From Alphaproteobacteria bacterium (lineage in GTDB: Bacteria; Pseudomonadota; Alphaproteobacteria; SHVV01), in the NCBI GenBank assembly GCA_965261735.1, contig OZ253470.1, forward strand, positions 2,240,001 through 2,304,000: a DNA stretch of 64,000 bases. The letters run 5' to 3'. Below the pieces are notes generated by a model that saw nothing but the letters and a program-made list of their open reading frames with translations, was not told where the DNA came from and ran no database searches. Numbering within the stretch: the first letter of the stretch is position 1; every line of letters begins with the position of its first letter. Both the position numbers and the translations under genes were made by a program. Shown here piece by piece: positions 7,881 to 33,002 of the stretch.

Positions 7881-9329
7881 GGTCGTGTCCCAGGACGTGG
7901 TGTAGGAGTTGTTGGAGCCTCTGTTAGCTGTGGGTAGGCGGCTTGCCGTAGCGACCGCCGAGAGTCTGGCGTAGGCAAGCCGGCTATCCACAGCGGAGGC
8001 CATCGCGGTTCCGGTTTAGGGTTGGGCTAGTGCAAACCAACCTGACCCGAAGGAGAACCACGATGACCCAGGACATGATGACCCTGCGCGCGCTTTTGGA
8101 GAAGAGCTCCGATGCCGATCTGCTTTGCGAGATGATCGGCTTCACGGCCGAGCGGCTGATGGCACTGGAGGTTGAGGGCCTGACCGGCGCCGGGCACGGC
8201 GAGCGCTCGGCGGATCGTATCACCCATCGCAACGGCTACCGCGACCGGTCCTGGGAGACGCGGGCCGGCACGGTCGAGCTGAAGATCCCGAAGCTGAGGA
8301 AGGGAAGCTACTTCCCGGGCTTCCTGGAGCCGCGGCGGATGGCCGAGAAGGCGCTGGCTGCGGTGATCCAGGAGGCCTACATCCAGGGGGTGTCGACCCG
8401 CTCGGTCGACGATCTGGTTCAGGCGATGGGGATGTCGGGCGCCTCCAAGAGCCAGGTCTCCAGGCTGTGCGGCGAGATCGACGATAAGGTCAACGGCTTC
8501 CTCGATCGACCGCTGGAGGGCGACTGGCCCTATCTGTGGCTCGACGCCACCTACGTGAAGGTGCGCCAGACCGGACGCATCGTCTCGGTCGCGGTGACCG
8601 TGGCTGTGGCCGTCAACGACCAAGGCCGCCGCGAGGTCCTGGGCGTGGCGATCGGCGCGTCGGAGGCCGAGACCTTCTGGACCGAGTTCCTGCGCTCGCT
8701 GGCCCGGCGCGGGCTGCGCGGCGTGAAGCTGGTGATCTCCGACGACCACAAGGGCCTGAAGGCCGCCGCGACCCGGATCCTCGGCGCCACATGGCAGCGC
8801 TGCCGCGTGCACTTCGCCCGCAACCTGCTGGCCCATGCCGGCCGCCAGGGCCGGCGCGTCGTCTCCGCCTTCGTCGCCACCGCCTTCGCCCAGGAGGACG
8901 CCGACAGCGCGAAGGTCCAGTGGCGCCAGGTCGCCGACCAGCTCAGGCCCAAGGTGCCCAAGCTGGCAGTTCTCATGGACGAAGCCGAGCACGACGTCCT
9001 CGCCTACATGAGCTTCCCCAGGGAGCACCGCCAGAAATTGCACTCCACAAACCCGATCGAACGGCTCCATGCCGAGGTCAAGCGTCGCACCAACGTCGTC
9101 GGTATCTTTCCCAACGAAGCCGCCATCACACGGCTCGTCGGCGCCATCCTTCTCGAGCAGAACGACGAGTGGGCCGTCTCAAGGAGATACATGACGCTGG
9201 AATCCATCGCTCCGCTGAGCGATGGTGTCCCCATCACGCTGCCCACCGTGGCAGCCTGAACGTCCCGGCCCTACCCGCCGGGAGCCGCGTAGAGCGCAAC
9301 GCTCTTACACCACTCCGCGGGACACGATC
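7881..9329 (+). mobile_element. IS256-family element (second type)
   Basis: Imperfect IRs G(G/A)TCGTGTCCC...GTGGTGTA and 8-bp duplication CGAAGCGG at 7873-7880 and 9330-9337. Confidence 0.92.
8063..9259 (+). CDS. IS256-family transposase
   Basis: [31 protein letters not shown] and STNPIERL motifs; RBS AGGAG upstream. Confidence 0.93.
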
Positions 9330-12597: not shown

Positions 12598-14876
12598 TTA
12601 TCCGTATGGCATCGCGCCGGTCAACGTCGATCTCTGCCGGGCCCCGGCAGCGGCGGATATGCCGGATTCCGCACCGCCCGTCGGACCGTCCAGCCACTCG
12701 TCCAGCTTCGACCAGCGCCGGCGTCCCGAGGCGTTGCGCACCGCGATGGCGACCGCCTTCTTCTGGCCCACCAGCACCACCAGCCGCTTGCCGCGCGTGA
12801 CCCCGGTGTAGAGCAGGTTCCGCTTCAGCATCGCGTAGTGCTGGGTCAGCACCGGGATCACCACCGCCGGATACTCCGAGCCCTGGCTCTTGTGGACCGT
12901 CGCGGCGTAGGCCGGCACCAGCGTATCCAACTCGCCGAAGCCGTAGAGGAGATCGCGGCCCTCGAACCGCGCGGTCAGCTCGCCGGCGTCTGGATCCACA
13001 TCGGCGACGAGCCCGATGTCGCCGTTGTAGACCTCCTTGTCGTAGTCGTTCTCGATCTGCATCACCTTGTCGCCGGGGGCAAAGGTCCAGCCGAAGCGCT
13101 CGACCTTCCGTTCGCCGGCTGGGTTGAGCGCGGCCTGCAGTTCGATGTTGAGCGAGCGGGCGCGGGCGCCGGCGCCGCCCCGGTTCATCGGGCACAGCAC
13201 CTGGATGTCCTGCATGGCGTCGAAGCCGAAGCGCTGCGGGATACGGGTCTTCACCAGCTCAACGATGCGGGCCGCCGCCGTCTCGGGATCCTCGGCCGGC
13301 ACGAAGTAGAAGTCGCTGTCGCCCTCGGGCCGGGAGAGGTCGGGGATAGCGCCTCGGTTGATACCGTGGGCGGTGGTGACGATCCGGCTTCGCGCCGCCT
13401 GGCGAAACACCTCGGTCAACCGCACCACCGGCACTGCGCCGGAGGCGATGATGTCGGCCAGAACCTGGCCCGGCCCCACCGAGGGCAGTTGGTCGACGTC
13501 GCCCACGATCAGGAGGGCGGCTTCGTCGGGGACCGCCGCCAGCAGCGCCCGCATCAGCATCACGTCCACCATCGACGTCTCGTCGATCACCAGCAGGCCG
13601 CAGTGGAGCGGGTTGTGCGCGTCGCGCCGGAACCCGCCGTTCCTGGGATCGACCTCCAGCAGGCGGTGGATCGTCTTCGCCTCCAACCCGGTGGCCTCGC
13701 TCATCCGCTTGGCCGCGCGCCCGGTCGGCGCGCACAGCAGGATATCGACGCCCTTGGCGGACAGGATGCGCAGGATCGAGTTGACGATCGTCGTCTTGCC
13801 GACGCCCGGTCCGCCGGTGATGACGGAGACCTTCGAGGAGAGCGCCGCGCGTACCGCGTCGGCCTGGCCGGGCGCCAGGGCGAGCCCGGTCTTGCCCTCC
13901 ACCCAGGGCAGGGCCTTGCTCGGGTCGATGTCGGGCCATGGGAGATTGCCGGCCGCAATCCCCAGAAGACGCCCGGCGATCGCGCGTTCGGCCCGGTGCA
14001 GGCCGCCGAGGAATATGGAGGGGATCTCCACCACCGTGTCGGCAACCACCGTGCCTTCGGCCAGCTCCAGGTCCAGCGCGGCGCGGATCAGCTCGCCGAA
14101 CCTCCAGGAGTTTGGCCGCGAGCGGTCCGAGCTCTTCTTCCGGCAGGCCGCAATGACCCTCGTCCATCGCTTCTGTCAGCGCGTAGCCGATGCCCGCGCG
14201 GACCCGGACCATGGCCGTCTTCGCGAAGCCGAGCTTCATCGCGATCGCGTCGGCGGTCACGAAACCGATGCCGCGGATGTCGCGCGCGAGGCGGTACGGG
14301 TTCTCCGTCATGACCTCGACCGCATCGGCGCCGTAGGTCCGGGAATATCCGCACCGCCCGCGCCGTGCCGACGCCGTGGCTGTGCAGGAACACCATGATC
14401 TCGCGGATCACCTTCTGCTCGGCCCAGGCATCGGTGATCCGCTTCGCCCGCACCTTCCCGATGCCGGTCACCTTGCGCAGGCGTTCGGGCTCGGCCTCGA
14501 TGACGTCAAACACCTTCTCGCCGAACGCCCGGACCAGCTTGCGGGCATAGACCGGGCCGATGCCCCGGATCGTGCCGGAGCCGAGATACTTCTCGATGCC
14601 CTCGACCGAGGACGGCTCGGAGGTGCGCATGAAGCGCGCCTTTAACTGTTGACCGTGGGTGCGGTCGTTGACCCACTCGCCCGAGGCGGTGATCCACTCC
14701 CCCGGTCCCACCATGGCGGCATGGCCGACCACGGTCACCAGGTCGCGATGCCCCCGCGCCTTCGTCCTCAGGACGCAGAAGCCGTTCTCCGGATTGTGGA
14801 AGGTGACGCGCTCGACCAGACCGGCCAGGACCTCCCGGTCCGAGGACTCTGGATGCTGGCCGGCGCCGGGTTTCAC
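12598..14876 (-). pseudogene. recD2: RecD2-like ATP-dependent DNA helicase, two frameshifts
   Basis: Homology spans three frames (LAGLVERVTFHN; ENPYRLARDIRGIGF; TGGPGVGKTT...HKSQGSEY), with shifts near 14340 and 14098. Confidence 0.88.
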
Positions 14877-15262: not shown

Positions 15263-18030
15263 CCCGACCTCTCTCTTCTACAATGACCCTCTACCGCGCC
15301 CATCCGCGCCCATTCGCGGAAGTCCGGTCGGACGCAGGCCGGCGTCCGTCGACACGGCAGTTCAAGCCGCTTCCCATGCCAGCCGCCCGGCGCGCAATCC
15401 CGATCCCGGCGCCCTGCAGACGATATCTTCCTCGCTCCGCCATCCGGGAAACCCGGTCACCCCGGCCCGAACAATGCATCGATATCCTCTTCGGTGAGCG
15501 CCAGGGGGCCTTCACCCGTTCCTTCGAACAATGCGTCCGCGAGGGCCTGCTTGCGGATCTGCATCTTCTGGATTGCCGCCTCGACGGTATCTTCAGCAAT
15601 GAGACGATGTACGAATACTGGCTTGTCCTGGCCGATCCGGTGCGCCCGGTCCATGGCCTGCCGTTCCACCGCCGGGTTCCACCAGGGGTCGTAGACAATG
15701 ACGGTGTCGGCAGCGGTCAGGTTGAGACCCGTGCCGCCCGCCTTCAGGCTGATCAGGAACAGCGGCAGGTTTCCCGACTGGAAGTTCGACACCTGAACGT
15801 CACGGTCCTTCGTGCTGCCGTGCAGCATGGCATAGTCCCAGCCGCGGGCGGCGACGTCGCCTTCGATCAGTCTCAGCATCTTTACGAACTGGGAGAAGAT
15901 CAGGATGTTTCGCCCTTCGGCCACGAGTTCCTCAAGCAACGCGAAGAGGCGCGCCCGCTTGGCGCTCTCGGTCACCTTGCGGGCAGAGTCGAGCCGGACC
16001 AGACGCGGATCGCAGCAGACCTGCCGCAGCTTCAGGAGCGCGTCGAGAATCGTGATGCGGGATGCGGCCAGGCCCCTCGCCGCGATGGCGTCGCGGATCC
16101 GCGCATCCATCGCCGTCCTGATGCTCTCGTAAAGCGCGGCCTGGCCGCCTTCGAGAGGGATGAGCTCGTCGATCACCGTCTTCTCGGGAAGGTCGCGGGC
16201 GACCTGCTCCTTGGTGCGCCGCATCAGGAAGGGCTTGATCCGGGTGGAGAGCAGGCGCTGTCTCGCGCGGTCGCCCCGCTTCTCGATCGGAGTTCGATAG
16301 TCGGCCGTGAAGGATTTTCGGTTTCCGAGCAGGCCGGGGATCAGCCAGTCATAGAGCGACCACAGCTCCCCGAGATTGTTCTCGAGCGGCGTCCCGGTCA
16401 GCGCCAGACGCTGCCGGGCCCGAACGTCCCGGATACGTTTGGAGACGGCCGCAGCCGGGTTCTTGACCGTCTGTGCCTCGTCCAGGATGGCGGTGTCGTA
16501 GTCGTGGCCGAACAACGCTTCATGGTCCCGGTTCAAGAGCGGATAGGTCGTGAGGACGAGATGGTGGTTAGGGATTTCAGAAAAGCGCTGCCGCCGGTCG
16601 GGCCCGTGAAGCACCAGGAGCTTCAGGTCCGGGACGAAACGTGCGGCCTCCCGTTTCCAGTTGCCGACCAGACTTGTCGGCACCACCACGAGGCTCGGGC
16701 GGTCGGTCCTCTCCTCAAGGTGCCGATGGGCGAGCAGGGCGAGCGCCTGCACGGTCTTGCCGAGCCCCATGTCGTCGGCAAGCATGCCGCCGAAGCCGCT
16801 GTCGGAGAGCGCCCTCAGCCAGCCGTAGCCGGCGCGCTGATAGGGACGCAACTCTCCGCGCAGCGCGGCGGGGGCCGGCAGCTCCGGGGCCTCGGAGAGA
16901 GACCGGAGGCGGGCGCCGAGATCGAGCAATTCCCGGCCCCCGGTCCACGGCGCACCGCAGCCCTCCAGGGCTTCGGCCAGTTCGGACAGGCGGCCCGCCT
17001 CGGCCCGATGGAAGCCGAGCAGCCCCTGCGCTTCCAGAAAGGCCTCGGCGAACCGCGCGAACCGTGCCCCGTCAATCGCAAGATACGTCCCGTCCTCGAA
17101 TCGGGCATGGATGACCCTGCCGGCAAGATGCCGGTCGACGTCGAAGCCGTCTTCCAGCTGTCCCCATTCGTTCACGGGCAGGGCGTCGACGATCTGCAGG
17201 ACGATCGGCGAGATGTCGAACGTCTGGCCGTTCGCCTCAAGCGACAGGGCAAGCGAGAACCAGTCGGAGTCCGACGATTCCAGCGCGGTCGAGAACGCGA
17301 CCGGCCCCTCGTAAATGCGGAACGGCCCTGTCTTGTCGATCTCGACGCGCCAGCCCTCGGCGCGGAGCGCGGGAAGCGTCCGCGAGACGAATCCGATGCC
17401 GGCCGCGGCCGCCTCCCCGTCGTCCCCGTCCCGGAGCGGCGGAAAGACGAAATCCGCATCGAGCACCCCGGGCAGCAGCCGGATCTCGTGACGCAGCGCG
17501 CTTGGATCCTCGCCGCCATGGCGCTTCGCCTCCTGCACGAGCGCCTCCCGGAAGCCGGCTTCCCGCACGGGATCGCGCCGGATGACGGCGGGACGGCAGT
17601 CGCCGTCGGCCTGGAGGCCGCCGATCCCGCCGGGCCGCAGCCGCCTCCCGGCACCCTCGTAGGTGATCTCCAGCCGGGCGCAGGGAAAGACGGCCGAAAC
17701 GTCTTTGCCGGGGCCCCTGCGGTATTCGCCAGGCGCGTACAGGGTCACGTTCTGCTCGCAGCCGTAGAGCGTCAGGACCGGTTCGGGCCGCACATCGGTG
17801 CGCTCCTCGACACGTTGCAACCGGGGCACGGGCGCATGCTGGCCGACCCGCGACAGTTTCGCCGTGACCGTCCCGACCGATTCATGCGGCACCGGCGGAG
17901 CGGAGGCGAACCAGGGTAACGATTCGGTCGTGCCGGGATGGGGGGCGTGTTCGTCATGATCCTCCACGTAATGGGGTAACCCTCAACAACTCACTGGTAA
18001 CGAGATTCGTCATGCCCTATCGTCAAGCGC

Positions 18031-20274
18031 ATGGTGGCTCGCGACGAGGATTTTGACGCGGCGCTGACGCTGGCCCAGGAGAGCGACGGGACTTGGTCGC
18101 CCTCTGAGGCCGTGCCGTCGCGCGAGCCGCGCGACTGGCGCCCGCGGTTTGAGCAGGAGCGTGCCCGCGCCGACCGGGACCGGGAGCGGGCAGACGCGGC
18201 GGAGGCGCGCCTTTCGAAAGCCGCTGTCGAGTCGGCGAAGCGCCGTAAGGTCGTCTCGCCGTCCGGGCAGGTGAGCCGACTGCAAAAGGAGAACGCTCGG
18301 CTGTCCAGGGAGGCCGCTCGGCTGGACAAGCGGCTGGCCCTCGAATCGCAGTCGTCGGAGAGCCACAAGGAGACCATTAGGTCACAGAACCGCGAGATCA
18401 TTCGTCTCGTTGCGGAGTTGAGGCGATTGCGCGACCAGAAGGATACGGTCAAGCGGCTGTCCGAAGAGGCCTACCGACTGCGCTTTGCCCGGCTGCTGCG
18501 TGCGACCGAGGCGGTGCGGTCGAAGTCGCCGCCCCGCGATACCGCTGAGCTGCGCGCGGCTTTAAGACGATCACGGCGCCAGAAGACAACGATCAGGTCG
18601 CTGAGCAAGGAGAACGCCCGGCTGCACAGGACGGTGCGGAGGTCGGAGACCCGCAAGGAAGCGCTGAAGGGCCGGCTTGCCAAACTTCGCGCAGGGAAGA
18701 CGCTGTCCGACACCGTCGGCGATCTGCGCAAGGCCCTTTCAAGATCGCGGCGCCAGAAGACGACGATCAAGTCGCTGGGCCAGGACAATGCCCGGTTGCA
18801 CAGGGCGGTGCGGAAGTTGGAGACCCGGAAGGCGGCGTTGGAGTCTCAGCTTGCCAGGCTCCGCGCGACCGGGACGACCCTGTCGAAGGCGCTCTTCGGG
18901 CGCCGGAGCGAGCAGCAGGAGAAGCCGCGCTCGGAGCGCAAACGCGGCCAGCAGCGCGGTGCTGCCGGCCATGGACGCACCCAACGGCCCACGATTGAGG
19001 AAAGGACGGAAGAGCACAACCCGTCGCCGGACGAGCGCGTCTGTGCCTGCTGCGGGAAGCCCTACGTGGCGAACGGCGCCGAGGAATCCACCCTCATCGA
19101 GATCGAGGTCCAGGCCCACAAGCGCGTCATCCGCCGTCCGAGGTGGCGCCGGGGCTGCACTTGCGAATCGTCGCCGCGGGAGGTGTCGGCCCCCCCGGTG
19201 CCGCGCCTGTTCGACAATACGCCCTACGGGATCAGCGTGTGGGCGCGCGTGCTCTTTGAGCGCTGTGCCTACTTCCGCCCGCTGAACCGGGTCGCGGCCT
19301 GGCTGTCGGACCAGGGGCTGGCGATCTCACCGGGGACACTGGGCGACAGCGAGAAGCGGTTCGTGCCGATGTTCGAACCGGTGGCCGAAGCGATCCTCGC
19401 GCACCAGAACAAGGCGGCAGTGCGCCACGGGGACGAGACCGGGTGGCGCATCCACTCGCTACGCGAGCAGGGCCGGTCGAGCCGCGCCTGGCTGTGGACC
19501 TCGGTCAGCAACGACGCGGTCTACTTCCACATCGACCCCTCGCGCAGCGCCGAGGTTGCGAAGACGCTGTTCGGCGCCGTCATCGGCATCGTGTTCCTGA
19601 TCTGCGACCGCCTCTCGACCTACAAGAAGATGGCGCGCGAGCTCGACGGCAAGGTGGTTCTGTGCTGGTGCTGGGTCCATCACCGCCGCGACTTCATCCA
19701 CTGCGCTGCCGGCCAGGTGCGCATGACGCAGTGGTGCCAGGCATGGATCGAGCGGATCGCGTCGATTTACCGGCTGAACGAGGCGCGACTGATCCACTAC
19801 GACCCTTGTCGCGACCGGCAGAGAGCGGCCTTCACCGCAGCGCAATCCGAGCTGAAGGCGACGGTCGACGATCTGTTCTCAGGGGCCGAACGGGAACTGG
19901 CCGCCCTGCCGCCGGAGGCGCGCGAGGGCAAGGCGCTGCGCTCTCTGGTGAACCACCGCGAGGGGCTGAGCGTCTTCGTCGACCGGCCTCAGGTGCCGAT
20001 GGATAATAATGCGGCCGAGCGCGCGCTCAGAGGTCCAGTCATAGGAAGACGGCTGTCGTTCGGCTCCGACAGCGAGACCGGCGCGCAGTTCACGGCGCTG
20101 ACGTACTCCGTGCTGGGCACTCTCGCGTTGAACCGCATCGACGTCCTGCGCTGGCTGGAAGCATGGCTGGGCGCGTGCGCGGAGAATGGCGGTCGACCAC
20201 CGGACGACCTGTCGCCCTGGCTGCCATGGTCGATGGACGAGGAACGCAGACGCGTCCTGACGGCGTCAGGATGA
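18031..20274 (+). CDS. tnpC: IS66-family transposase with long coiled-coil N-terminus
   Basis: LFGRRSE, KRGQQRG..GHGR, Zn finger C..CG, HGDETGW, ICDR..TY, CWVHHRR and DNNAAERALR motifs. Confidence 0.9.
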   Translation: MVARDEDFDAALTLAQESDGTWSPSEAVPSREPRDWRPRFEQERARADRDRERADAAEARLSKAAVESAKRRKVVSPSGQVSRLQKENARLSREAARLDKRLALESQSSESHKETIRSQNREIIRLVAELRRLRDQKDTVKRLSEEAYRLRFARLLRATEAVRSKSPPRDTAELRAALRRSRRQKTTIRSLSKENARLHRTVRRSETRKEALKGRLAKLRAGKTLSDTVGDLRKALSRSRRQKTTIKSLGQDNARLHRAVRKLETRKAALESQLARLRATGTTLSKALFGRRSEQQEKPRSERKRGQQRGAAGHGRTQRPTIEERTEEHNPSPDERVCACCGKPYVANGAEESTLIEIEVQAHKRVIRRPRWRRGCTCESSPREVSAPPVPRLFDNTPYGISVWARVLFERCAYFRPLNRVAAWLSDQGLAISPGTLGDSEKRFVPMFEPVAEAILAHQNKAAVRHGDETGWRIHSLREQGRSSRAWLWTSVSNDAVYFHIDPSRSAEVAKTLFGAVIGIVFLICDRLSTYKKMARELDGKVVLCWCWVHHRRDFIHCAAGQVRMTQWCQAWIERIASIYRLNEARLIHYDPCRDRQRAAFTAAQSELKATVDDLFSGAERELAALPPEAREGKALRSLVNHREGLSVFVDRPQVPMDNNAAERALRGPVIGRRLSFGSDSETGAQFTALTYSVLGTLALNRIDVLRWLEAWLGACAENGGRPPDDLSPWLPWSMDEERRRVLTASG

Positions 20275-21152
20275 CCGGCGCCGTCGAGTGCCGCTACTAC
20301 GGACGCGACTTCAGCGCCGAGGAAATGGCGCTGCTGCGCGCGCTGATCGCCGGCCCTCCGCCGCTGAACCGCCACGCCCTGTCGAAGGAGTTCTGCCGGC
20401 GCATCCGCTGGCTCAAGCCCGATGGCGGGCTCAAGGACATGATGGCCAGGGTGACCATGCTGGCCTTGCACAAGGACGGCCTGATCGCGCTGCCGGCGCC
20501 GAAGTGGCGGCAGAACCGGCCAAAGCCGATCGTCTTCGGACCGGAAACCGAGCCGCCGCTGTTCCCGGCGCCATCTACCCTCGACGAGGTCCGTCCGCTC
20601 GACCTGCGGACCGTCGCTCGCGGCACCCAGGAGGGCAAGCTGTGGAACGAGTTCGTCGCCCGCTACCACTATCTCGGCTACAGCACCCTGGTCGGCGCCC
20701 AGATGCGCTACGCCGTCCACGACAGAAACGGCTGGCCGCTCGCCATGCTCGGCTTCTCAACCGCCGCGTGGAAGCTCGCCCCGCGCGACACCTTCATCGG
20801 ATGGACGCCGCAGCTGCGCGAGAAGAACCTACCCCTCGTCGTCGACAACCCGAGGTTCCTCATCCTGCCCTGGATCGAGATCCCCAACCTCGGCTCGCAC
20901 ATCCTCGCCCTAATCCGCCGGCGCCTGCCCGACGACTGGACCGAGCGCTACAACACAACGCCCGTGCTCATCGAGACCTTCGTCGAAACGCCGCGCTACA
21001 CCGGACACGTCTACAAAGCCTCCGGCTGGCTCCGTGTCGGAACTACCCAGGGCCGGGGACGCTACGACCGACACACGAAGCGCGCCCAGCCGAAAAAGGA
21101 CATCTGGCTCCGGCCCCTGAAAAAAGATTGGAAGCGGACACTCAACCGATAA
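20271..21152 (+). CDS. DUF4338 (DruA-like) domain protein
   Basis: YHYLGY..LVGAQMRY, AAWKLAPRD.FIGW, RFLILPW..PNLGS, DW.ERY...PVLIETFV and G..YKASGW..VG.T.GRGR motifs. ATGA overlap with tnpC. Confidence 0.88.
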   Translation: MTGAVECRYYGRDFSAEEMALLRALIAGPPPLNRHALSKEFCRRIRWLKPDGGLKDMMARVTMLALHKDGLIALPAPKWRQNRPKPIVFGPETEPPLFPAPSTLDEVRPLDLRTVARGTQEGKLWNEFVARYHYLGYSTLVGAQMRYAVHDRNGWPLAMLGFSTAAWKLAPRDTFIGWTPQLREKNLPLVVDNPRFLILPWIEIPNLGSHILALIRRRLPDDWTERYNTTPVLIETFVETPRYTGHVYKASGWLRVGTTQGRGRYDRHTKRAQPKKDIWLRPLKKDWKRTLNR

Positions 21153-21615
21153 AATCAGTGGCCTATCCCGGCACGACCGAATCGTTACGAACCAGGACGC
21201 CATCCGGGGCGACAGCGACGTTTCGGCGACACCGGTCTCCCCGGTTGCGGGATCGAGGAAGAACGGTGACGGGAACGGCAGCAGCGTCATGGTGGAACCG
21301 GCGCCGTCGCGCGCCACGATCGACTGCTCGCCGGCCGGGCCGACCTCCCAGGCGAGATCGAGCCTCCGCGGCGGCGACCACGACAGGGCCATGCCCCGGA
21401 TTTCGTGAGCCCGGGCGCGGCCCGTCTCGACGATTTCACGCACGAGGCCGGTCAGCTCTTCGCCGTCCGGCCAGTCGTAGCTCGGCTGAAAGCCGCCATC
21501 GGCAAAGAAGTCGAGCTTCCCGAGGATCGCGGCGTCCTGCACGGTCAGGTTCTTCCGGGCCCAAGACGATCGGCGGTTGAATTCCTGGAAGTTGGAGCCG
21601 ATCGTTTCATCCTTC

Positions 21616-22535
21616 CTTGCCTATCCGGTGTACACCCACACCCACTAGGGCTAGAATGGGCGCAAACCGGATATAGGGGAGCGCGCCATGGATGTTCTCG
21701 ACCGCGCCGATCTCCCATTCCCGCATTCGCTACCCGAGTTCCAGCGACTTTTCCCCGATGATGCGGCCTGCGCCGCCTACCTGGAGAAAGCCCGCTGGGG
21801 AGACGGCTTTGCGCTGCCGCAAGTGCCGCCAGAACGCCGGGCTGACGGTGGGAACAGTGATGGAGCGTAGCCACACTCCGCTGAACGTCTGGTTCTGGGC
21901 CGCTTATCTGGTCGCCAGTCAGACGCCCGGCATGTCCGCCGTGCAGTTTCAGCGGCAACTTGGTCTTTCGCGAACGCGTGGGGAAGGCCGTGGTGTTCAC
22001 CACAAGGTTCCCGTCTCCTGTGCCATCGAGGTGCGTCATCGAAAGCCGGGCACCAAGCTCGACAACCGGAAAGACGGACGCTATGCCGGACGCGTTCGGC
22101 TCGCCGTCGTGCTCGACCGTAGCGCCGAGTCGCTCTGTGGGTTCGTCGAGAGCACCGTCGCGCCGCGATCGCTGATCGTTACTGACGATTGGAGCGGCTA
22201 TGCTGGCCTCGGTAAGCGCGGCTATGAGCACTTCGCTGTTGCCGAGTGTGGTGATCCAGAGGTTGCCGAGCAATACCTGCCGATCATCCATCTGGTTTTC
22301 GCCAACCTGAAGACGTGGCTGATCGGTATCCACCACGGCGTTAGCCACCAGCACCTACAAGCCTACCTCAACGAGTTCACCTTCCGCTTCAACAGGCGGT
22401 TCTACCCGTTCAACGCCTTCCGCTCATTGCTCGGCATCGCGGGCGACACCTCTGCTCCAACCTATGCCGAGCTTTACTCGGGAGAGTGGCGGCACCCTAC
22501 ATGTAGCGGTCATGGGCGTTAACCGGATAGGCAAG
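21616..22535 (+). mobile_element. IS1595 element A with two internal deletions (920 bp)
   Basis: Both IRs present, with 8-bp duplication CATCCTTC. It lacks 62 bp and 123 bp relative to the full copies. Confidence 0.93.
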
Positions 22536-22878: not shown

Positions 22879-23983
22879 CTTGCCTATCCGGTTAACGCCC
22901 ATGACCGCTACATGTAGGGTGCCGCCACTCTCCCGAGTAAAGCTCGGCATAGGTTGGAGCAGAGGTGTCGCCCGCGATGCCGAGCAATGAGCGGAAGGCG
23001 TTGAACGGGTAGAACCGCCTGTTGAAGCGGAAGGTGAACTCGTTGAGGTAGGCTTGTAGGTGCTGGTGGCTAACGCCGTGGTGGATACCGATCAGCCACG
23101 TCTTCAGGTTGGCGAAAACCAGATGGATGATCGGCAGGTATTGCTCGGCAACCTCTGGATCACCACACTCGGCAACAGCGAAGTGCTCATAGCCGCGCTT
23201 ACCGAGGCCAGCATAGCCGCTCCAATCGTCAGTAACGATCAGCGATCCCGGCGCGACGGTGCTCTCGACGAACCCACAGAGCGACTCGGCGCTACGGTCG
23301 AGCACGACGGCGAGCCGAACGCGTCCGGCATAGCGTCCGTCTTTCCGGTTGTCGAGCTTGGTGCCCGGCTTTCGATGACGCACCTCGATGGCACAGGAGA
23401 CGGGAACCTTGTGGTGAACACCACGGCCTTCCCCACGCGTTCGCCCGCCAACCCAGGTTTCGTCCACCTCAACATGGTTCTTGGGCTGTCCACCGATCCT
23501 GTCTTGGTTGGGCCGCACCATGCCCGAGCGGAGCTTGTGGAGAATTTGAAAGGCCGTCTCGTAGCGCGAAAGACCAAGTTGCCGCTGAAACTGCACGGCG
23601 GACATGCCGGGCGTCTGACTGGCGACCAGATAAGCGGCCCAGAACCAGACGTTCAGCGGAGTGTGGCTACGCTCCATCACTGTTCCCACCGTCAGCCCGG
23701 TGTTCTGGCGGCACTTGCGGCAGCGCAGGACGCCAGGGCGGTTTTCAAAGTGGAACGGCTCTCCCGCCGTGCCGCAGTGCGGGCAGGCAAAGCCGTCTCC
23801 CCAGCGGGCTTTCTCCAGGTAGGCGGCGCAGGCCGCATCATCGGGGAAAAGTCGCTGGAACTCGGGTAGCGAATGCGGGAATGGGAGATCGGCGCGGTCG
23901 AGAACATCCATGGCGCGCTCCCCTATATCCGGGTTGCGCCCATTCTAGCCCTAGTGGGTGTGGGTGTAAACCGGATAGGCAAG
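22879..23983 (-). mobile_element. IS1595 element A, full-length copy
   Basis: Near-identical to 473..1577; flanked by an AGAGAAC direct repeat. Confidence 0.93.
22892..23911 (-). CDS. IS1595-family transposase
   Basis: Intact 339-aa ORF, almost identical to 486..1505. Confidence 0.93.
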   Translation of the reverse strand: MDVLDRADLPFPHSLPEFQRLFPDDAACAAYLEKARWGDGFACPHCGTAGEPFHFENRPGVLRCRKCRQNTGLTVGTVMERSHTPLNVWFWAAYLVASQTPGMSAVQFQRQLGLSRYETAFQILHKLRSGMVRPNQDRIGGQPKNHVEVDETWVGGRTRGEGRGVHHKVPVSCAIEVRHRKPGTKLDNRKDGRYAGRVRLAVVLDRSAESLCGFVESTVAPGSLIVTDDWSGYAGLGKRGYEHFAVAECGDPEVAEQYLPIIHLVFANLKTWLIGIHHGVSHQHLQAYLNEFTFRFNRRFYPFNAFRSLLGIAGDTSAPTYAELYSGEWRHPTCSGHGR

Positions 23984-25367: not shown

Positions 25368-25692
25368 AGTAGTCCGCCTACTCCGACGAACCGCGGATCG
25401 CAGTGTACTCCGGGGACTGGTCCCGAGAACTCTGCTACGGTCGGCTTCTTTTGCTCTACGAGATCAAAGCCGGAACTGGAGCAGACTGCCAGCGAGCAGA
25501 ACAGCTCGCCGACGCCCTTCCTTCGCTTGTCACGGTTGACCAACAACGGCAGGCCGAGCGCCTCTTCAGAGCTTCTGATAATCGAGCTGAGGCCCTTTCT
25601 CCTGAGTCCTTACGCTTTATTGCAACAGCTGAGCATGTCGCAGCGCAACTGGAATTGAACGCACAGCTTGAGTGGTCACCCGCTGTAATAGG

Positions 25693-27043
25693 CGGTAGCG
25701 CATGCGATGGCGATGCTTGCGGAAGAAGGCGAGTTCCCGCTCGGTCTCGGCCCGGTCGGGCGCAGCGGCGGCATCGCGAAGGTGGCGCAGCGCCCGGATC
25801 ACCTTGGCGACGCCACGGGGATCGTGACGGAGGATCTCGCGGTACTTCTCGAACCAGCCGGGCGCCACGGCATGGTCGGACGCGGTTTGCAGATGTTCGC
25901 AAGCATGCCAGAAGTCGATCACCTCGGTTTCGGGCGACAGGGTCTCCAGGAAGGTCCAGTTGTCGGCGGCGCCATCGGCGATAGCGACGATCCCGATCTC
26001 GGGGCGTGCTCGCCTGATGTGTGCGACTTCGCTTGCAAGCTGCGCCTTCAGCGTGAGCTTGCCGCTCTCCGGCATGGGGCCGAGATAGAGGGTCTTCAGG
26101 CGCTTGCCCTCGGCGTCGTGGAAGGAGACCGTGCCGCAGGCGGCCTCGCGCCAGGAGGCCTTGGCGCGACCGTCCTCGCCGGGTCTCAGCGGCACCATGA
26201 CGCCGTCGAGGGAGACCGAGGCGGTGGTCGCGTCCTGCGGTATGCCCTCGGCCTCACGGATGCTGCCCAGCGTCTCCGGGCCGAGGCTCTCCCAGCATTC
26301 GTGCATGCTCAGGGTCAGGCGCTGCAGGGTGCTCACCGACGGCGTCATGGCGCCGGTCTTCGCAAAGAACGCCGCCGCTTCCCGGGCCGTGCAGCGACCC
26401 ATCATCAGCAGACCGAGCTCGGCCGCCGGCCGCGTCAGGTAATCGTCGACGAAGCCCAGGCTCTCGTCGACCGGCACCGGCGATGCCCCGCTCGCGCCGC
26501 TGCGGTAACGCGCTCGCCGGTAGGTCACCGGACCGAGCGAGGTCATGATCGTCTTCGGCGTCACCGCGACCCGGAACCAGCTCTGCCCGTCCCGCTCGAT
26601 CCGGGAAGCGCCATCGTCCCGGTTCTCGATGACGGCGCCCATGACATCGCGAGCGAACTCGTTCGTGGCCTCACGCACCCGCAACTCGACCTCCTCGGGC
26701 ACCTCGGGGCGCGGCTCGGAACGAAGCTCCTCGCGACACAGTGCGAGCACCCGGGCGGCCGCCTCGACGACCCGAGGAGGCAGGCCGGAAAGATCGATGG
26801 ACGAAGGCGCCGGAGGCGGGGATACTGCCATGGGAATGCCCCCGATGTTGGGTTTCGAGACACGGCATCGTACCGCTTCTGGCGGTGCGGAGCGTTCCCA
26901 CCTTCCCCTGCTCGACCCTGCCGTCGTGACAAAATCCTGCCTTGGAGCGGCCCATTGTCACGAATAGCCGTTTTCGGCCGTTCGTCTCGACACAAAAACG
27001 CACTAAATCAATGACTTGGATTTTCCATACCAGACCCACACCC
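25693..27043 (-). mobile_element. ISKra4-like element, 3'-truncated (transposase 26831 to ~25693)
   Basis: SLDGVMVP, WREAACG, IADGAADNW and IDFWHACEHL motifs. The final catalytic E region is missing. Probable left end GGGTGTGGGTC at 27043. Confidence 0.78.
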
Positions 27044-28533: not shown

Positions 28534-29686
28534 TAGTGGATTGATCGGAACGAAAGAGTCCGATTTGAGATTCCGTATTGTGCGGTGTCATGCGAGTCTG
28601 TGCTATGCGCACCGGCATCCATTTTACTGTCACGTCTGGCGACCGTCAGCGATTGCAAGCTATCGTCGCGGACCCGAAGAGCTCGCAGAAACATGTCTGG
28701 CGGGCGCGGATCATCCTGAAGAGCGACGAGGGGCTCGGGAACTCGTCGATCATGGCCGAGACCGGCAAGTCCAAGACCTGTGTCTGGCGCTGGCAGGAGC
28801 GGTTCATGCACGAGGGTGTCAACGGCTTGCTTCGCGACAGGTCCCGTCCGCCTGGCAAAGCGCCGATCCCGCCGGAGCGCGTCGCCGAGATCGTCCGCCT
28901 GACCCAGCAAGCGCCGCCGCACGAGGCGACCCACTGGACGCTGCGCGCGATGGCGAAGGTTGCTGGCGTCGCGGCGTCGACGGTCCAAGCGATCTGGAAG
29001 GCCCATGGCCTCAGCCCGCACCGCTGGCGGCACTTCAAGCTCTCCAATGATCCCGCCTTCGCCGAGAAGCTCACAGATATCGTCGGCTTGTATGTCGATC
29101 CGCCGGCCCATGCCGTGGTGCTGTCGGTTGATGAGAAATCACAGATCCAGGCGCTCGACCGCACCCAACCCGGCTTGCCGATGAAGAAGGGCCGCGCCGG
29201 TACGATGACCTATGATTACAAACGGCATGGCACGACGACGCTGTTCGCCGCGCTCAACGTGCTGGACGGTACGGTCATCGCACAGAACATGCAGCGCCAC
29301 CGCCATCAGGAGTTCATCCGCTTCCTCAACCGCATCGAGCGCGAGGTGCCGACGGACAAGGCCGTCCACGTCATCCTCGACAACTACGCCGCGCACAAGA
29401 AGGACAAGGTCCGCGCCTGGCTCGCCCGCCATCCACGCTGGACCTTCCACTTCACGCCAACCTCGTGCTCGTGGCTCAATGCCGTCGAGGGCTTCTTCGC
29501 CAAACTAACGCGGCGCAGGCTCAAATACGGCGTCTTCCAATCCGTCGTCGACCTTCAGGCCCCCATCAACCGATTTGTCCGCGAATACAATGACGCAAAC
29601 CCAAAACCCTTCATCTGGAAAGCCGACCCCGATCATATCATCGCCGCACGAAACAGAGGGTTCCAAACGTTGGAATCAATCCACTA
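28534..29686 (+). mobile_element. IS630-family element
   Basis: TAGTGGATTGAT...ATCAATCCACTA ends, inserted in CTAG (TA duplication). Confidence 0.92.
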
Positions 29687-29687
29687 G
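28605..29687 (+). CDS. IS630-family transposase
   Basis: VDEKSQIQAL, DYKRHGT, ILDNYAAH and SWLNAVE motifs. Confidence 0.93.
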   Translation: MRTGIHFTVTSGDRQRLQAIVADPKSSQKHVWRARIILKSDEGLGNSSIMAETGKSKTCVWRWQERFMHEGVNGLLRDRSRPPGKAPIPPERVAEIVRLTQQAPPHEATHWTLRAMAKVAGVAASTVQAIWKAHGLSPHRWRHFKLSNDPAFAEKLTDIVGLYVDPPAHAVVLSVDEKSQIQALDRTQPGLPMKKGRAGTMTYDYKRHGTTTLFAALNVLDGTVIAQNMQRHRHQEFIRFLNRIEREVPTDKAVHVILDNYAAHKKDKVRAWLARHPRWTFHFTPTSCSWLNAVEGFFAKLTRRRLKYGVFQSVVDLQAPINRFVREYNDANPKPFIWKADPDHIIAARNRGFQTLESIH

Positions 29688-31629: not shown

Positions 31630-33002
31630 CAGGCTGCTGAAAAAGTCATCATTGCCGGGCCTTGAACTCGGATTCATCGCCGAAATGAAATGAGATTTCG
31701 TGTCTTAGGGTGAAACCGTCTTCAATCTCGACCGATCCGATGCCCTGGGCTTCGTCCAGTTCGATGATCTGCCACTTTGCGGTCAGCGGCGTGCCGGCAT
31801 CGCCCGTCATGTTGGCGCCTCCGCCAGCAGTCTGGGTAGTCGGACGAGGTTGTAGGCGGCCAAGGCCAGGGTGAACGAAGCGTCGACCCGGTGGCGGCCC
31901 CGGAATTTGGTCTTGCTCAATCCCGCGCTCGTCTTGACCCAGCCGAAGACCTCCTCGATGCGCTTGCGGCAACGTTGGCTGACGCCGTAACCGGGATGGC
32001 GCGTCGTGCGCCCGTCTATCTTGGTCTTGCGCCGCTTGCCGGTCTTGGTGACGTGGTCCTGGACGGCGATATGGGGGGTCACCTTGCGGTGCCGCAGTTC
32101 CTCGACAAAATCCGCGACGTCAAAACCCTTGTCCCCGCCCACCGTGATCCGACGCCGCCCGCCTCTACTCTCCACCGGGCGATGCCTGTCGATCAGATCA
32201 AGGGCGGCTTCGCGTTCCGCCGTGCCCGACGCAATGGTCACGCCGCCGCCGACTGCCAGACCATGGCGGTTCTCCGTCAGCGCATGGCCCATGTAACACA
32301 GCTTGCTTTCCCGGCCATTACCCTTGCGATAAAGCCGGGCGTCCGGATCAGTGGTGCTTGCATGGGTCGCGTTCGAGCGTTTCTCGCCATGAAAATCCCG
32401 CGCGGCGTTGCGCCCCGATCCCCCGTCGCCATCGTCCTCACCTTTGGGACGAAAGCTCTTCATCGACGCCCAGGCCTCGATCAATGTTCCGTCTACCGAA
32501 AAATGATCCCGGCTCAATAGTCCCCCTACCTTGTGGTGCTGGATAACCCCCGCAAGCAGCTGCCCCGAAACCTCCGCCTCCAGAAGACGGTCCCGGTTGT
32601 GGCAGAACGCGCTGGCGTCCCACACGCCATCGTCCAGCCCAAGCCCCACAAACCAGCAAAACAGCATGTTGAAGTTTAGCTGCTCCATCAGCTGACGCTC
32701 CGAGCAGATCGAATAAAACGCCTGCAACAGTAACGCTCGAAGAAGCTTCTCCGGCGGGATCGATGGGCGACCCATGTGGGAATAAAGCGTCTCGAACTCC
32801 GAAGATAGAGACCCCAATACGTCGTTCACGATCTCACGGATCAGACGCAGCGGATGATCATCCGGAACACGCTCTTCCAAGTCTACGTAGCTGAATAAAT
32901 TGCCACTGCTTTGATCTCGACCCCGCATGCCATCCTCCATCACTCGAAGGAATCACAGAATCATGTCACAACTGCAAAGGCGAGGACTTTTTCAGCAGCC
33001 TG
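31630..33002 (-). mobile_element. IS5-family element
   Basis: Perfect IRs CAGGCTGCTGAAAAAGTC flanked by CTAG on both sides. Confidence 0.93.
31807..32943 (-). CDS. IS5-family transposase
   Basis: GRPSIPPEKLLRA, FSVDGTLIEA, STTDPDARL, GDKGFD and RKRIEEVFGW motifs. Confidence 0.92.
   Translation of the reverse strand: MMEDGMRGRDQSSGNLFSYVDLEERVPDDHPLRLIREIVNDVLGSLSSEFETLYSHMGRPSIPPEKLLRALLLQAFYSICSERQLMEQLNFNMLFCWFVGLGLDDGVWDASAFCHNRDRLLEAEVSGQLLAGVIQHHKVGGLLSRDHFSVDGTLIEAWASMKSFRPKGEDDGDGGSGRNAARDFHGEKRSNATHASTTDPDARLYRKGNGRESKLCYMGHALTENRHGLAVGGGVTIASGTAEREAALDLIDRHRPVESRGGRRRITVGGDKGFDVADFVEELRHRKVTPHIAVQDHVTKTGKRRKTKIDGRTTRHPGYGVSQRCRKRIEEVFGWVKTSAGLSKTKFRGRHRVDASFTLALAAYNLVRLPRLLAEAPT

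Follow-up and report, generated by a model that had tools for sequence, protein, structure and literature searches.

The window analysed here, a stretch of 64,000 nucleotides from an Alphaproteobacteria bacterium (assembly GCA_965261735.1, contig OZ253470.1, positions 2,240,001 to 2,304,000), contains at 17916..21188 an IS66-family insertion sequence (IS) of 3273 bp, delimited by reading of the sequence and a repeat search, which is, to a confidence just short of certainty, a genuine and recently moved element. It carries two genes, tnpC for the transposase and a second, coupled gene of the DUF4338 family (PF14236), and this pairing is conserved among relatives. The C-terminal domain of the DUF4338 protein is, in the structure model, of the GNAT (GCN5-like acetyltransferase) fold, and its closest characterised relative, as judged from profile and fold comparisons, is Mom of phage Mu. 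In our best explanation, to which, taken as a whole, we would give an even chance, the element is a member of a widespread two-gene IS66 lineage in which the DUF4338 protein takes the place of TnpA and TnpB and acts as a GNAT accessory enzyme of transposition; we infer that it is a transposase-linked and probably nucleic-acid-modifying enzyme.

Elements of IS66, a large IS family, have terminal inverted repeats (IRs) of ~20–30 bp that begin with 5'-GTAA, and an 8-bp target duplication. The left IR of this element (IRL, 17916-17939, GTAACGATTCGGTCGTGCCGGGAT) and its right IR (IRR, 21165-21188) are reverse complements at 24 of 24 positions and both start with 5'-GTAA, their pairing stretches to 27 nt at 26/27 in the repeat search (on the left side up to 17942), and 8-bp direct repeats GAACCAGG flank the element directly (17908-17915 and 21189-21196). 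The transposase gene tnpC (18031..20274, 747 aa), preceded by just 115 bp within the element, matches PF03050 (DDE_Tnp_IS66, E = 5e-57) and NCBIfam NF033517 (272 bits, cut-off 180), while the second gene (20271..21152, 293 aa) matches PF14236, named 'DruA' and formerly DUF4338 (E = 1.7e-39, 136 bits, cut-off 27), and its ATG overlaps the TGA of tnpC as ATGA (20271-20274). Perfect 24-bp IRs and an 8-bp duplication around exactly two overlapping genes, as described by the original prediction (a model's reading of the letters), can thus all be read directly. The absence of tnpA and tnpB, which it had also claimed, follows from the space, since the two genes take up 3122 of the 3273 bp and leave room for no further gene, and from a genome profile search in which TnpB_IS66 (PF05717) had no match inside the element, its four matches all lying elsewhere. 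The features of the element and of the interrupted gene around it are as follows:

17908..17915, no strand: left target-site duplication, GAACCAGG (sequence; single GAACCACG in the empty site of a related genome, locus L125; contig joint)
17916..17939, plus strand: IRL, 24 bp, GTAA start (sequence, repeat search)
18031..20274, plus strand: tnpC, IS66-family DDE transposase, 747 aa (PF03050, NF033517)
18031..18930, plus strand: N-terminal arm of TnpC, ~300 aa, fast-evolving and coiled-coil-like (repeat, dN/dS of 0.78, variable length)
19225..20088, plus strand: DDE_Tnp_IS66 catalytic core, residues 399-686 (PF03050)
20271..21152, plus strand: DUF4338/PF14236 gene, 293 aa (PF14236; ATGA overlap with the tnpC stop)
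20271..20510, plus strand: N-terminal small domain of the DUF4338 protein, residues 1-80, presumed DNA-binding (model, alignments)
20580..21149, plus strand: predicted GNAT-fold domain of the DUF4338 protein, residues 104-293, Mom-like (model, fold and profile comparisons)
21165..21188, minus strand: IRR, perfect complement of IRL (sequence, repeat search)
21189..21196, no strand: right target-site duplication, GAACCAGG (sequence; L125 empty site)
15457..17915, minus strand: 3' part of an SNF2-family helicase gene (PF00176, E = 2.7e-63; PF00271; open frame across the in-silico empty site)
21189..21620, minus strand: 5' part of the SNF2 helicase gene (frame; 77% nucleotide identity to the stretch of L125 that immediately follows the left-flank match)

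The claim that this is an intact, recently moved element is borne out by the gene that it splits and by two kinds of empty site. Removal in silico of the element and one repeat copy leaves the minus-strand helicase frame open over 960 codons across the junction, and in another genome of the same family (G401, locus L125) the orthologous helicase gene is uninterrupted and IS-free, with a single GAACCACG at that place, on which the alignments of the left flank (72%) and of the right flank (77%) meet. In addition, 17906 is followed immediately by 21188 in contigs from two public sequencing runs (X1 and X2, each of a different study), so that 3281 bases (3273 + 8) are missing, with 9 letters at the joint that fit either side. 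The depth of these contigs is 107.5 (X1) and 26.3 (X2), and the X1 contig shows 6 differences from the window flank over 310 positions, so the unoccupied site persists in near-identical populations. A decayed second copy at 82% nucleotide identity lies outside the window in the source genome (G000, contig C1, 1952141-1953015; locus L002, 1513-2444, minus strand), where a frameshifted DUF4338 gene follows the last ~25 codons of a tnpC truncated by an IS256-type insertion, and more fragments of both genes are found elsewhere in that genome.

The pairing of tnpC with a DUF4338 gene is a conserved arrangement and no one-off capture. Relatives of the window DUF4338 protein number 5973 at E ≤ 0.001 among 8000 candidates scored (8279 cluster representatives), and 87 full-length copies at 84–87% identity were collected from 78 genome loci, mostly in alphaproteobacterial metagenome-assembled genomes (MAGs) and often with many copies per genome (some loci overlap, so that some copies are counted twice). 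A TnpC homologue ends at most 30 nt before the DUF4338 start in 87 of these 87 copies and the start is an ATGA overlap in 74, while a crude search (threshold of at least 17/24 matching) recovered GTAA IRs enclosing both genes in 41 and identical 8-bp duplications in 27; among the duplications, no obvious target consensus was seen on inspection. The TnpC proteins of the relatives are 47–65% identical overall, with whole-protein lengths of 721–883 aa owing to the varying arm. Selective constraint is tightest on the second gene, with a median dN/dS (20 elements, 190 pairs) of 0.22 in DUF4338 as against 0.46 in the core and 0.78 in the arm of TnpC. Pairwise protein distances of the two genes are correlated across 77 IS66-type elements (20 two-gene elements, 3 in reverse order and 54 fusions; 10 of the 87 were left out for poor coverage), with a Mantel r of 0.909 and 0 of 999 permutations as high, a figure that is inflated by relatedness and by the choice of best-scoring rows. 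Thus, the survey of pairs within shared IRs and of their co-phylogeny, as suggested by the original prediction, indicates that the two genes have clearly long travelled together.

The TnpC arm, whose length varies in this lineage, holds in the window a 174-nt tandem repeat (18522-18866, two copies, 74% identical) and gave just weak SMC/JetC-like matches in profile searches. One X1 contig is without exactly 174 nt (18622 joined to 18797), so that the repeat number of the arm differs between populations. In all three DNA-type runs the depth of contigs over the DUF4338 gene (20220-21005, 90% likeness) is tens to hundreds of times that over the arm (in X2, 50,623 vs. 41–59, summed over organisms and thus no copy number), a contrast that fits many related elements with a conserved DUF4338 gene in common and differing arms. 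Contigs from an RNA library (run X17) match parts of both genes at 90–98%; as contigs they are no proof of transcription, they may stem from related copies, and they are not used as evidence here. Head-to-tail tandem copies of related elements occur in several MAG assemblies (L028, 1885-9094; L084, 1857-8990; L045, 2028-8845; L048). The two copies in L028 are spaced by exactly 8 bp equal to the outer duplications (GCCTACCC three times) and the L084 spacer is also 8 bp, whereas the spacers in L045 and L048 are 17 bp, with a third left end following in L045. Such tandems could be IS dimers, as from copy-out-paste-in elements, or assembly artefacts. A promoter-like sequence (TTGGAA, 16 nt, TAAAAT; 21128-21155) points outwards through IRR from within the end of the DUF4338 gene and might drive expression of the gene that follows or, where IRR abuts IRL, of tnpC; a claim that it is a promoter was dropped, as it overlaps coding sequence, which confounds its conservation, and the second hexamer is kept in 3 of 8 lineages.

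The association of DUF4338 with transposases extends beyond the two-gene arrangement and beyond IS66. Among 8000 candidates, 977 long relatives (551–2000 aa) were found at E ≤ 1e-10, and the best 120 of these comprise 63 with PF03050, 55 with Tn5-type DNA-binding/dimerisation domains, 1 with PF01609 (ISAs1 by NCBIfam) and 1 with DruA alone, the DUF4338 part being C-terminal in the IS66 type and N-terminal in the Tn5-like type. In an even sample of the phylum, 23 of 401 genomes have a match at E ≤ 1e-10, and at 28 loci from this sample 71 of 124 open reading frames (ORFs) of at least 130 aa, the longer ones, were scanned. A DUF4338 gene lies upstream of IS66 tnpC and overlaps it (L096, L098, L099), adjoins or is fused to IS4/Tn5-like transposases (L097, L112, L118), precedes ISKra4 transposases (L100, L101) or stands beside IS1634 transposases (L110, L120), and at seven loci an ISAs1 transposase has the GNAT part alone fused to its N-terminus. 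Relatives of this protein are thus fused to three transposase families and adjacent to two more (IS66, IS4/Tn5-like, ISAs1, ISKra4 and IS1634 in all). In a FastTree phylogeny built on the GNAT part from 147 rows (best hits, near-copies included) and 186 columns, the partner-family label needs 7–8 changes vs. a minimum of 5 and a shuffled mean of 55.9, with 0 of 200 shuffles as low, a result inflated in the same manner as the Mantel figure; the small number of changes makes partner-family switches look rare and the associations with transposases look old.

Two records with DUF4338 matches, both from Thiodictyon, were present in a plasmid collection. On one of them (NZ_CP020371.1; L092, 5034-6368) a gene annotated as 'ISAs1 family transposase' carries the DUF4338 GNAT part at its N-terminus, a fusion hidden by the public annotation, and on its sister plasmid (L091) a block of integrase, IS91 and IS4 genes has been inserted between two halves of a DUF2235 gene, with a stand-alone DUF4338 gene at the head of the block.

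The Pfam name of the family raises a different reading; the original prediction had equated DUF4338 with the DruA component of type I Druantia and proposed a role outside that system. Membership of type I DruA in the same Pfam family PF14236 holds; the window protein scores just 27 bits against PADLOC DruA1 (E = 5.4e-7, confined to residues 111-235), there is nothing Dru-like within the IRs or beside the element, and the link to true Druantia DruA appears weak. The best DruA1-type gene in the 401 genomes (G319; L134, 13622-18981) encodes a protein of 397 aa with 268 bits against PADLOC DruA1, which aligns with the IS-type profile over ~65 residues (E = 2e-5). It is located directly downstream of a tniQ-like gene and is followed by a gene for a 404-aa protein without matches and by one for an ATPase (HerA/mad8-like, 614 aa); in the 19.5 kb examined, a large DruE-like ORF was not found near it. 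This gene may belong to the cargo of a Tn7-like element or represent another link to transposition, and its use as a genuine type I DruA for active-site comparison was dropped in view of its place behind tniQ, the absence of a DruE-like ORF nearby and the short alignment. A term search of the YprA/Druantia preprint found no mention of DruA, GNAT or transposases.

It could be argued from the family name, from the shielding of Mu DNA against restriction by Mom (as stated in a passage of PMC13219725) and from the apparent cargo position of the strongest PADLOC DruA1-type gene in the sample that the DUF4338 gene is likewise cargo, namely a DruA-like or Mom-like defence or anti-restriction gene that benefits host or element after horizontal transfer and has no part in transposition. 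Retention in 87 of 87 close copies, co-divergence with tnpC and in-frame fusions with three transposase families are unlike cargo, however, and a gene coupled translationally to a transposase must be expressed at a very low level, ill-suited to genome-wide protection; along with the low DruA1 score and the lack of Dru partners, this makes the cargo reading quite improbable. We consider it likely that the DUF4338 gene is a selected part of the transposition unit.

An AlphaFold2 model of the DUF4338 protein (33-sequence alignment, pLDDT 92.7) has an N-terminal unit of residues 1 to ~78, made up of a beta-hairpin, three helices and a further, small hairpin, which a linker rich in proline joins to a domain of residues 104-293. 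Foldseek returned 219 PDB matches at E ≤ 0.001 for this model, and all of the top rows listed are GNAT-fold proteins, so that the fold comparison with Mom and GNAT structures, which had been put forward as a check, did yield a GNAT fold. Searches by sequence were less informative: nothing useful was obtained from the PDB (one chance match, E = 0.84), the whole protein matched just DruA and one chance family in Pfam at E ≤ 10, with no general acetyltransferase family, and 11 segments of the N-terminal region had no significant Pfam match (scattered matches at E = 0.02–0.24). The N-terminal domain, in which the original prediction saw a possible winged helix, contains an invariant tryptophan (W47) in the alignments and does not occur in the ISAs1 fusions. 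The fold as such had been recognised before, as the relevant passage of PMC10853773 already classes DUF4338 as a domain of the GCN5-like acetyltransferase (GNAT) type, fused there to DndF.

Conserved residues of the GNAT domain are H133, Y134, R172, W178, R195, S209, E235, E/D239, R242, Y248, W253, G261 and R262. In the family alignment, H133 is kept in 33/33 sequences, Y134 in 26/33, S209 in 32/33, D/E239 in 30/33, R242 in 28/33 and Y248 in 31/33, and each of H133, S209 and Y248 is present in 120/120 of the best 120 fusions. The family also has a 16-residue insertion of its own (R172-L187), in which R172 and W178 are invariant. A GNAT cleft that is nearly invariant over such deep divergence suggests retained chemistry rather than scaffolding, and we find it fairly probable that the protein is catalytically active. 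This conservation bears on the idea of a non-catalytic pseudo-enzyme, i.e., an architectural or targeting subunit that would attach to the ends or the target and build or direct the transpososome in place of TnpA/TnpB. Such a role would suit the replacement of tnpA and tnpB in the lineage, the separate N-terminal domain and the variable gene order with its fusions, but it is the GNAT part that is retained in the ISAs1 fusions and the N-terminal domain that is lost, and with the cleft so well preserved we regard a pseudo-enzyme as improbable.

The motif Q/R-x-x-G-x-G/A between beta4 and alpha3 binds the pyrophosphate of acetyl-CoA in GNATs. At this place the window protein reads PNLGSH (consensus PNLAS), and no such motif was seen on inspection of the loop. 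An active DUF4338 protein might still be an acetyl-CoA-using protein acetyltransferase that modifies the transposase or a host factor (e.g., a nucleoid protein) and regulates transposase activity or stability without touching DNA. The loop, the failure of any acetyltransferase family in Pfam to match at E ≤ 10 and the fact that Mom families are the sole profile-level relatives render this unlikely.

Mom (PF25680; PDB 8bv8) carries out a Gly-tRNA-dependent N6-adenine modification, according to a passage of PMC13219725. It became the nearest solved structure after re-alignment of Foldseek's 1000 best chains, and hhalign against a 26-sequence Mom alignment gave E = 0.0039 over 147 columns. Out of 38,880 PHROG families just one falls below E = 0.1, namely 'Mom-like DNA modification protein', which the window protein matches at E = 0.0083 and its homologue L095 at 2.8e-7, and L095 scores 25.9 bits against Pfam Mom (E = 8.8e-6), just below the cut-off of 27.1. 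The active-site residues of Mom, in those parts of PMC7261163 and PMC13219725 that name them, are H48, Y49, R101, S114, D139, R141 and Y149 (residue numbers in PMC13219725 run 10 above those of the GenBank protein). Six of these seven have aligned conserved DUF4338 counterparts, i.e., H133/Y134 for H48/Y49, S209 for S114, E239 (D or E in the family) for D139, R242 for R141 and Y248 for Y149, the serine and tyrosine among them being GNAT-wide.

Overall, these lines of evidence are consistent with a scheme in which the DUF4338 protein would be a core accessory enzyme of the transposition module and not cargo. It would be made in small amounts along with the transposase by termination-reinitiation at the ATGA; the overlap leaves no space for a separate ribosome-binding site, which suggests reinitiation in step with the transposase. 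Fusions to three transposase families, adjacency to two, co-divergence and tighter constraint speak for joint action with the transposase, probably within one complex. The N-terminal domain, or the transposase itself in fused relatives, would bring it to DNA, as suggested by the loss of this domain where the ISAs1 transposase has its own DNA-binding region. Where transposition takes place, it may attach an acyl or aminoacyl group to a substrate, and this transfer would control or protect the process. The relationship to Mom and the lack, by inspection, of an acetyl-CoA pyrophosphate motif point to nucleic acid as the substrate and to a donor that is not acetyl-CoA; the likeliest single candidate would be DNA (the element ends, an intermediate or the target), although we propose this only tentatively and rate it as less likely than not.

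Several observations weigh against this explanation. IS66-family elements without a DUF4338 gene exist (the ISBst12 group), so the gene is not generally needed for IS66 chemistry. The source genome (5.03 Mb, one contig) holds one intact copy of the element only, the fused 'proteins' at 83–87% identity may be products of gene-call read-through, and the inflation of the two statistics on co-divergence and partner labels has been noted above. With regard to Mom, the hhalign probability is just 8.5%, the window protein has no match to Pfam Mom (PF25680) at E ≤ 10, and Foldseek's own ranking places SpeG first (4e-6) and Mom (8bv8_B) at rank 15. The family-specific and essential R101 of Mom falls in an alignment gap, and its helix-turn-helix (HTH)-like insertion is without counterpart, a hhalign gap of ~23 residues facing a 16-residue loop with a TQGRG motif in DUF4338. 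This insertion lies between beta6 and beta7 of Mom and its deletion abolishes activity, as reported in a passage of PMC13219725, while the alpha3 serine and alpha4 tyrosine make contacts described as general for GNATs in a passage of PMC7261163. The Mom-like C-terminal motif of the original prediction thus stands in part: the GNAT fold was found, with Mom as the nearest solved structure and phage family, but the motif itself partly reflects a general GNAT alpha4-beta6 region.

The element lies in a part of the window (8030-32943) that is dense in mobile-element genes and also contains a split helicase gene:

8030-9259: IS256/Mutator-type transposase
12598-14876, minus strand: RecD2-like helicase, split over at least three frames
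21692-22522, plus strand: IS1595-type transposase
22892-23911, minus strand: IS1595-type transposase
25617-26831, minus strand: UPF0236-type fragment
28578-29687: IS630-like DDE_3 transposase
31807-32943, minus strand: IS5-like transposase

To our knowledge, the accessory proteins and the mechanism of IS66 elements are not understood, and a whole lineage that swaps TnpA/TnpB for an enzyme-like protein more tightly conserved than its transposase is of interest for this reason alone. In the searchable literature (outside ISfinder and supplements) we found no paper linking DruA/DUF4338 with transposases, or DruA with GNAT. The element itself represents a variant within a known IS family, and a Mom-like GNAT protein as a recurrent partner of DDE transposases is apparently undescribed. 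As a practical consequence, PF14236/'DruA' matches beside transposases should not be counted as defence genes. If DUF4338 modified DNA in the manner of Mom, this would constitute an element-encoded chemical layer of transposition control and would provide a concrete, testable activity for the uncharacterised DruA of Druantia. A broader and rather speculative extension, which we rate as not likely, would be that DUF4338 is a Mom-like nucleic-acid-modifying family recruited, through coupling or in-frame fusion, by DDE transposases from five or more IS families to mark ends, intermediate or target covalently via a non-CoA donor such as aminoacyl-tRNA, with Mu Mom and Druantia DruA as its offshoots. 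If this were true, DruA would be the enzyme that does the self-marking in type I Druantia, a position held in type II Druantia by a methyltransferase.

Comparison with known systems places the element within the IS66 family by its transposase type, GTAA IRs and 8-bp target duplication. The canonical group (IS66, IS679, ISRm14) has the gene order tnpA-tnpB-tnpC, whereas the element lacks tnpA and tnpB and has a 300-aa, repeat-bearing, coiled-coil-like TnpC arm as well as the coupled downstream DUF4338 gene. In the ISBst12 group, with tnpC as the sole gene, tnpA and tnpB are missing as they are here, but the second conserved, co-diverging gene inside the IRs means that this element is not of the single-ORF type. 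Type I Druantia is reportedly an operon in which druB-druE accompany druA; in the element such partner genes are absent, tnpC being the only other gene inside the IRs and the flanks being the two halves of one SNF2 gene. In the DndF fusion, DUF4338 forms the N-terminal module of a defence ATPase, and the passage of PMC10853773 that describes it is silent on transposases. Finally, compared with Mom, the window protein is devoid of the HTH-like insertion and of R101, and has instead the R172-L187 insertion and an extra N-terminal domain.

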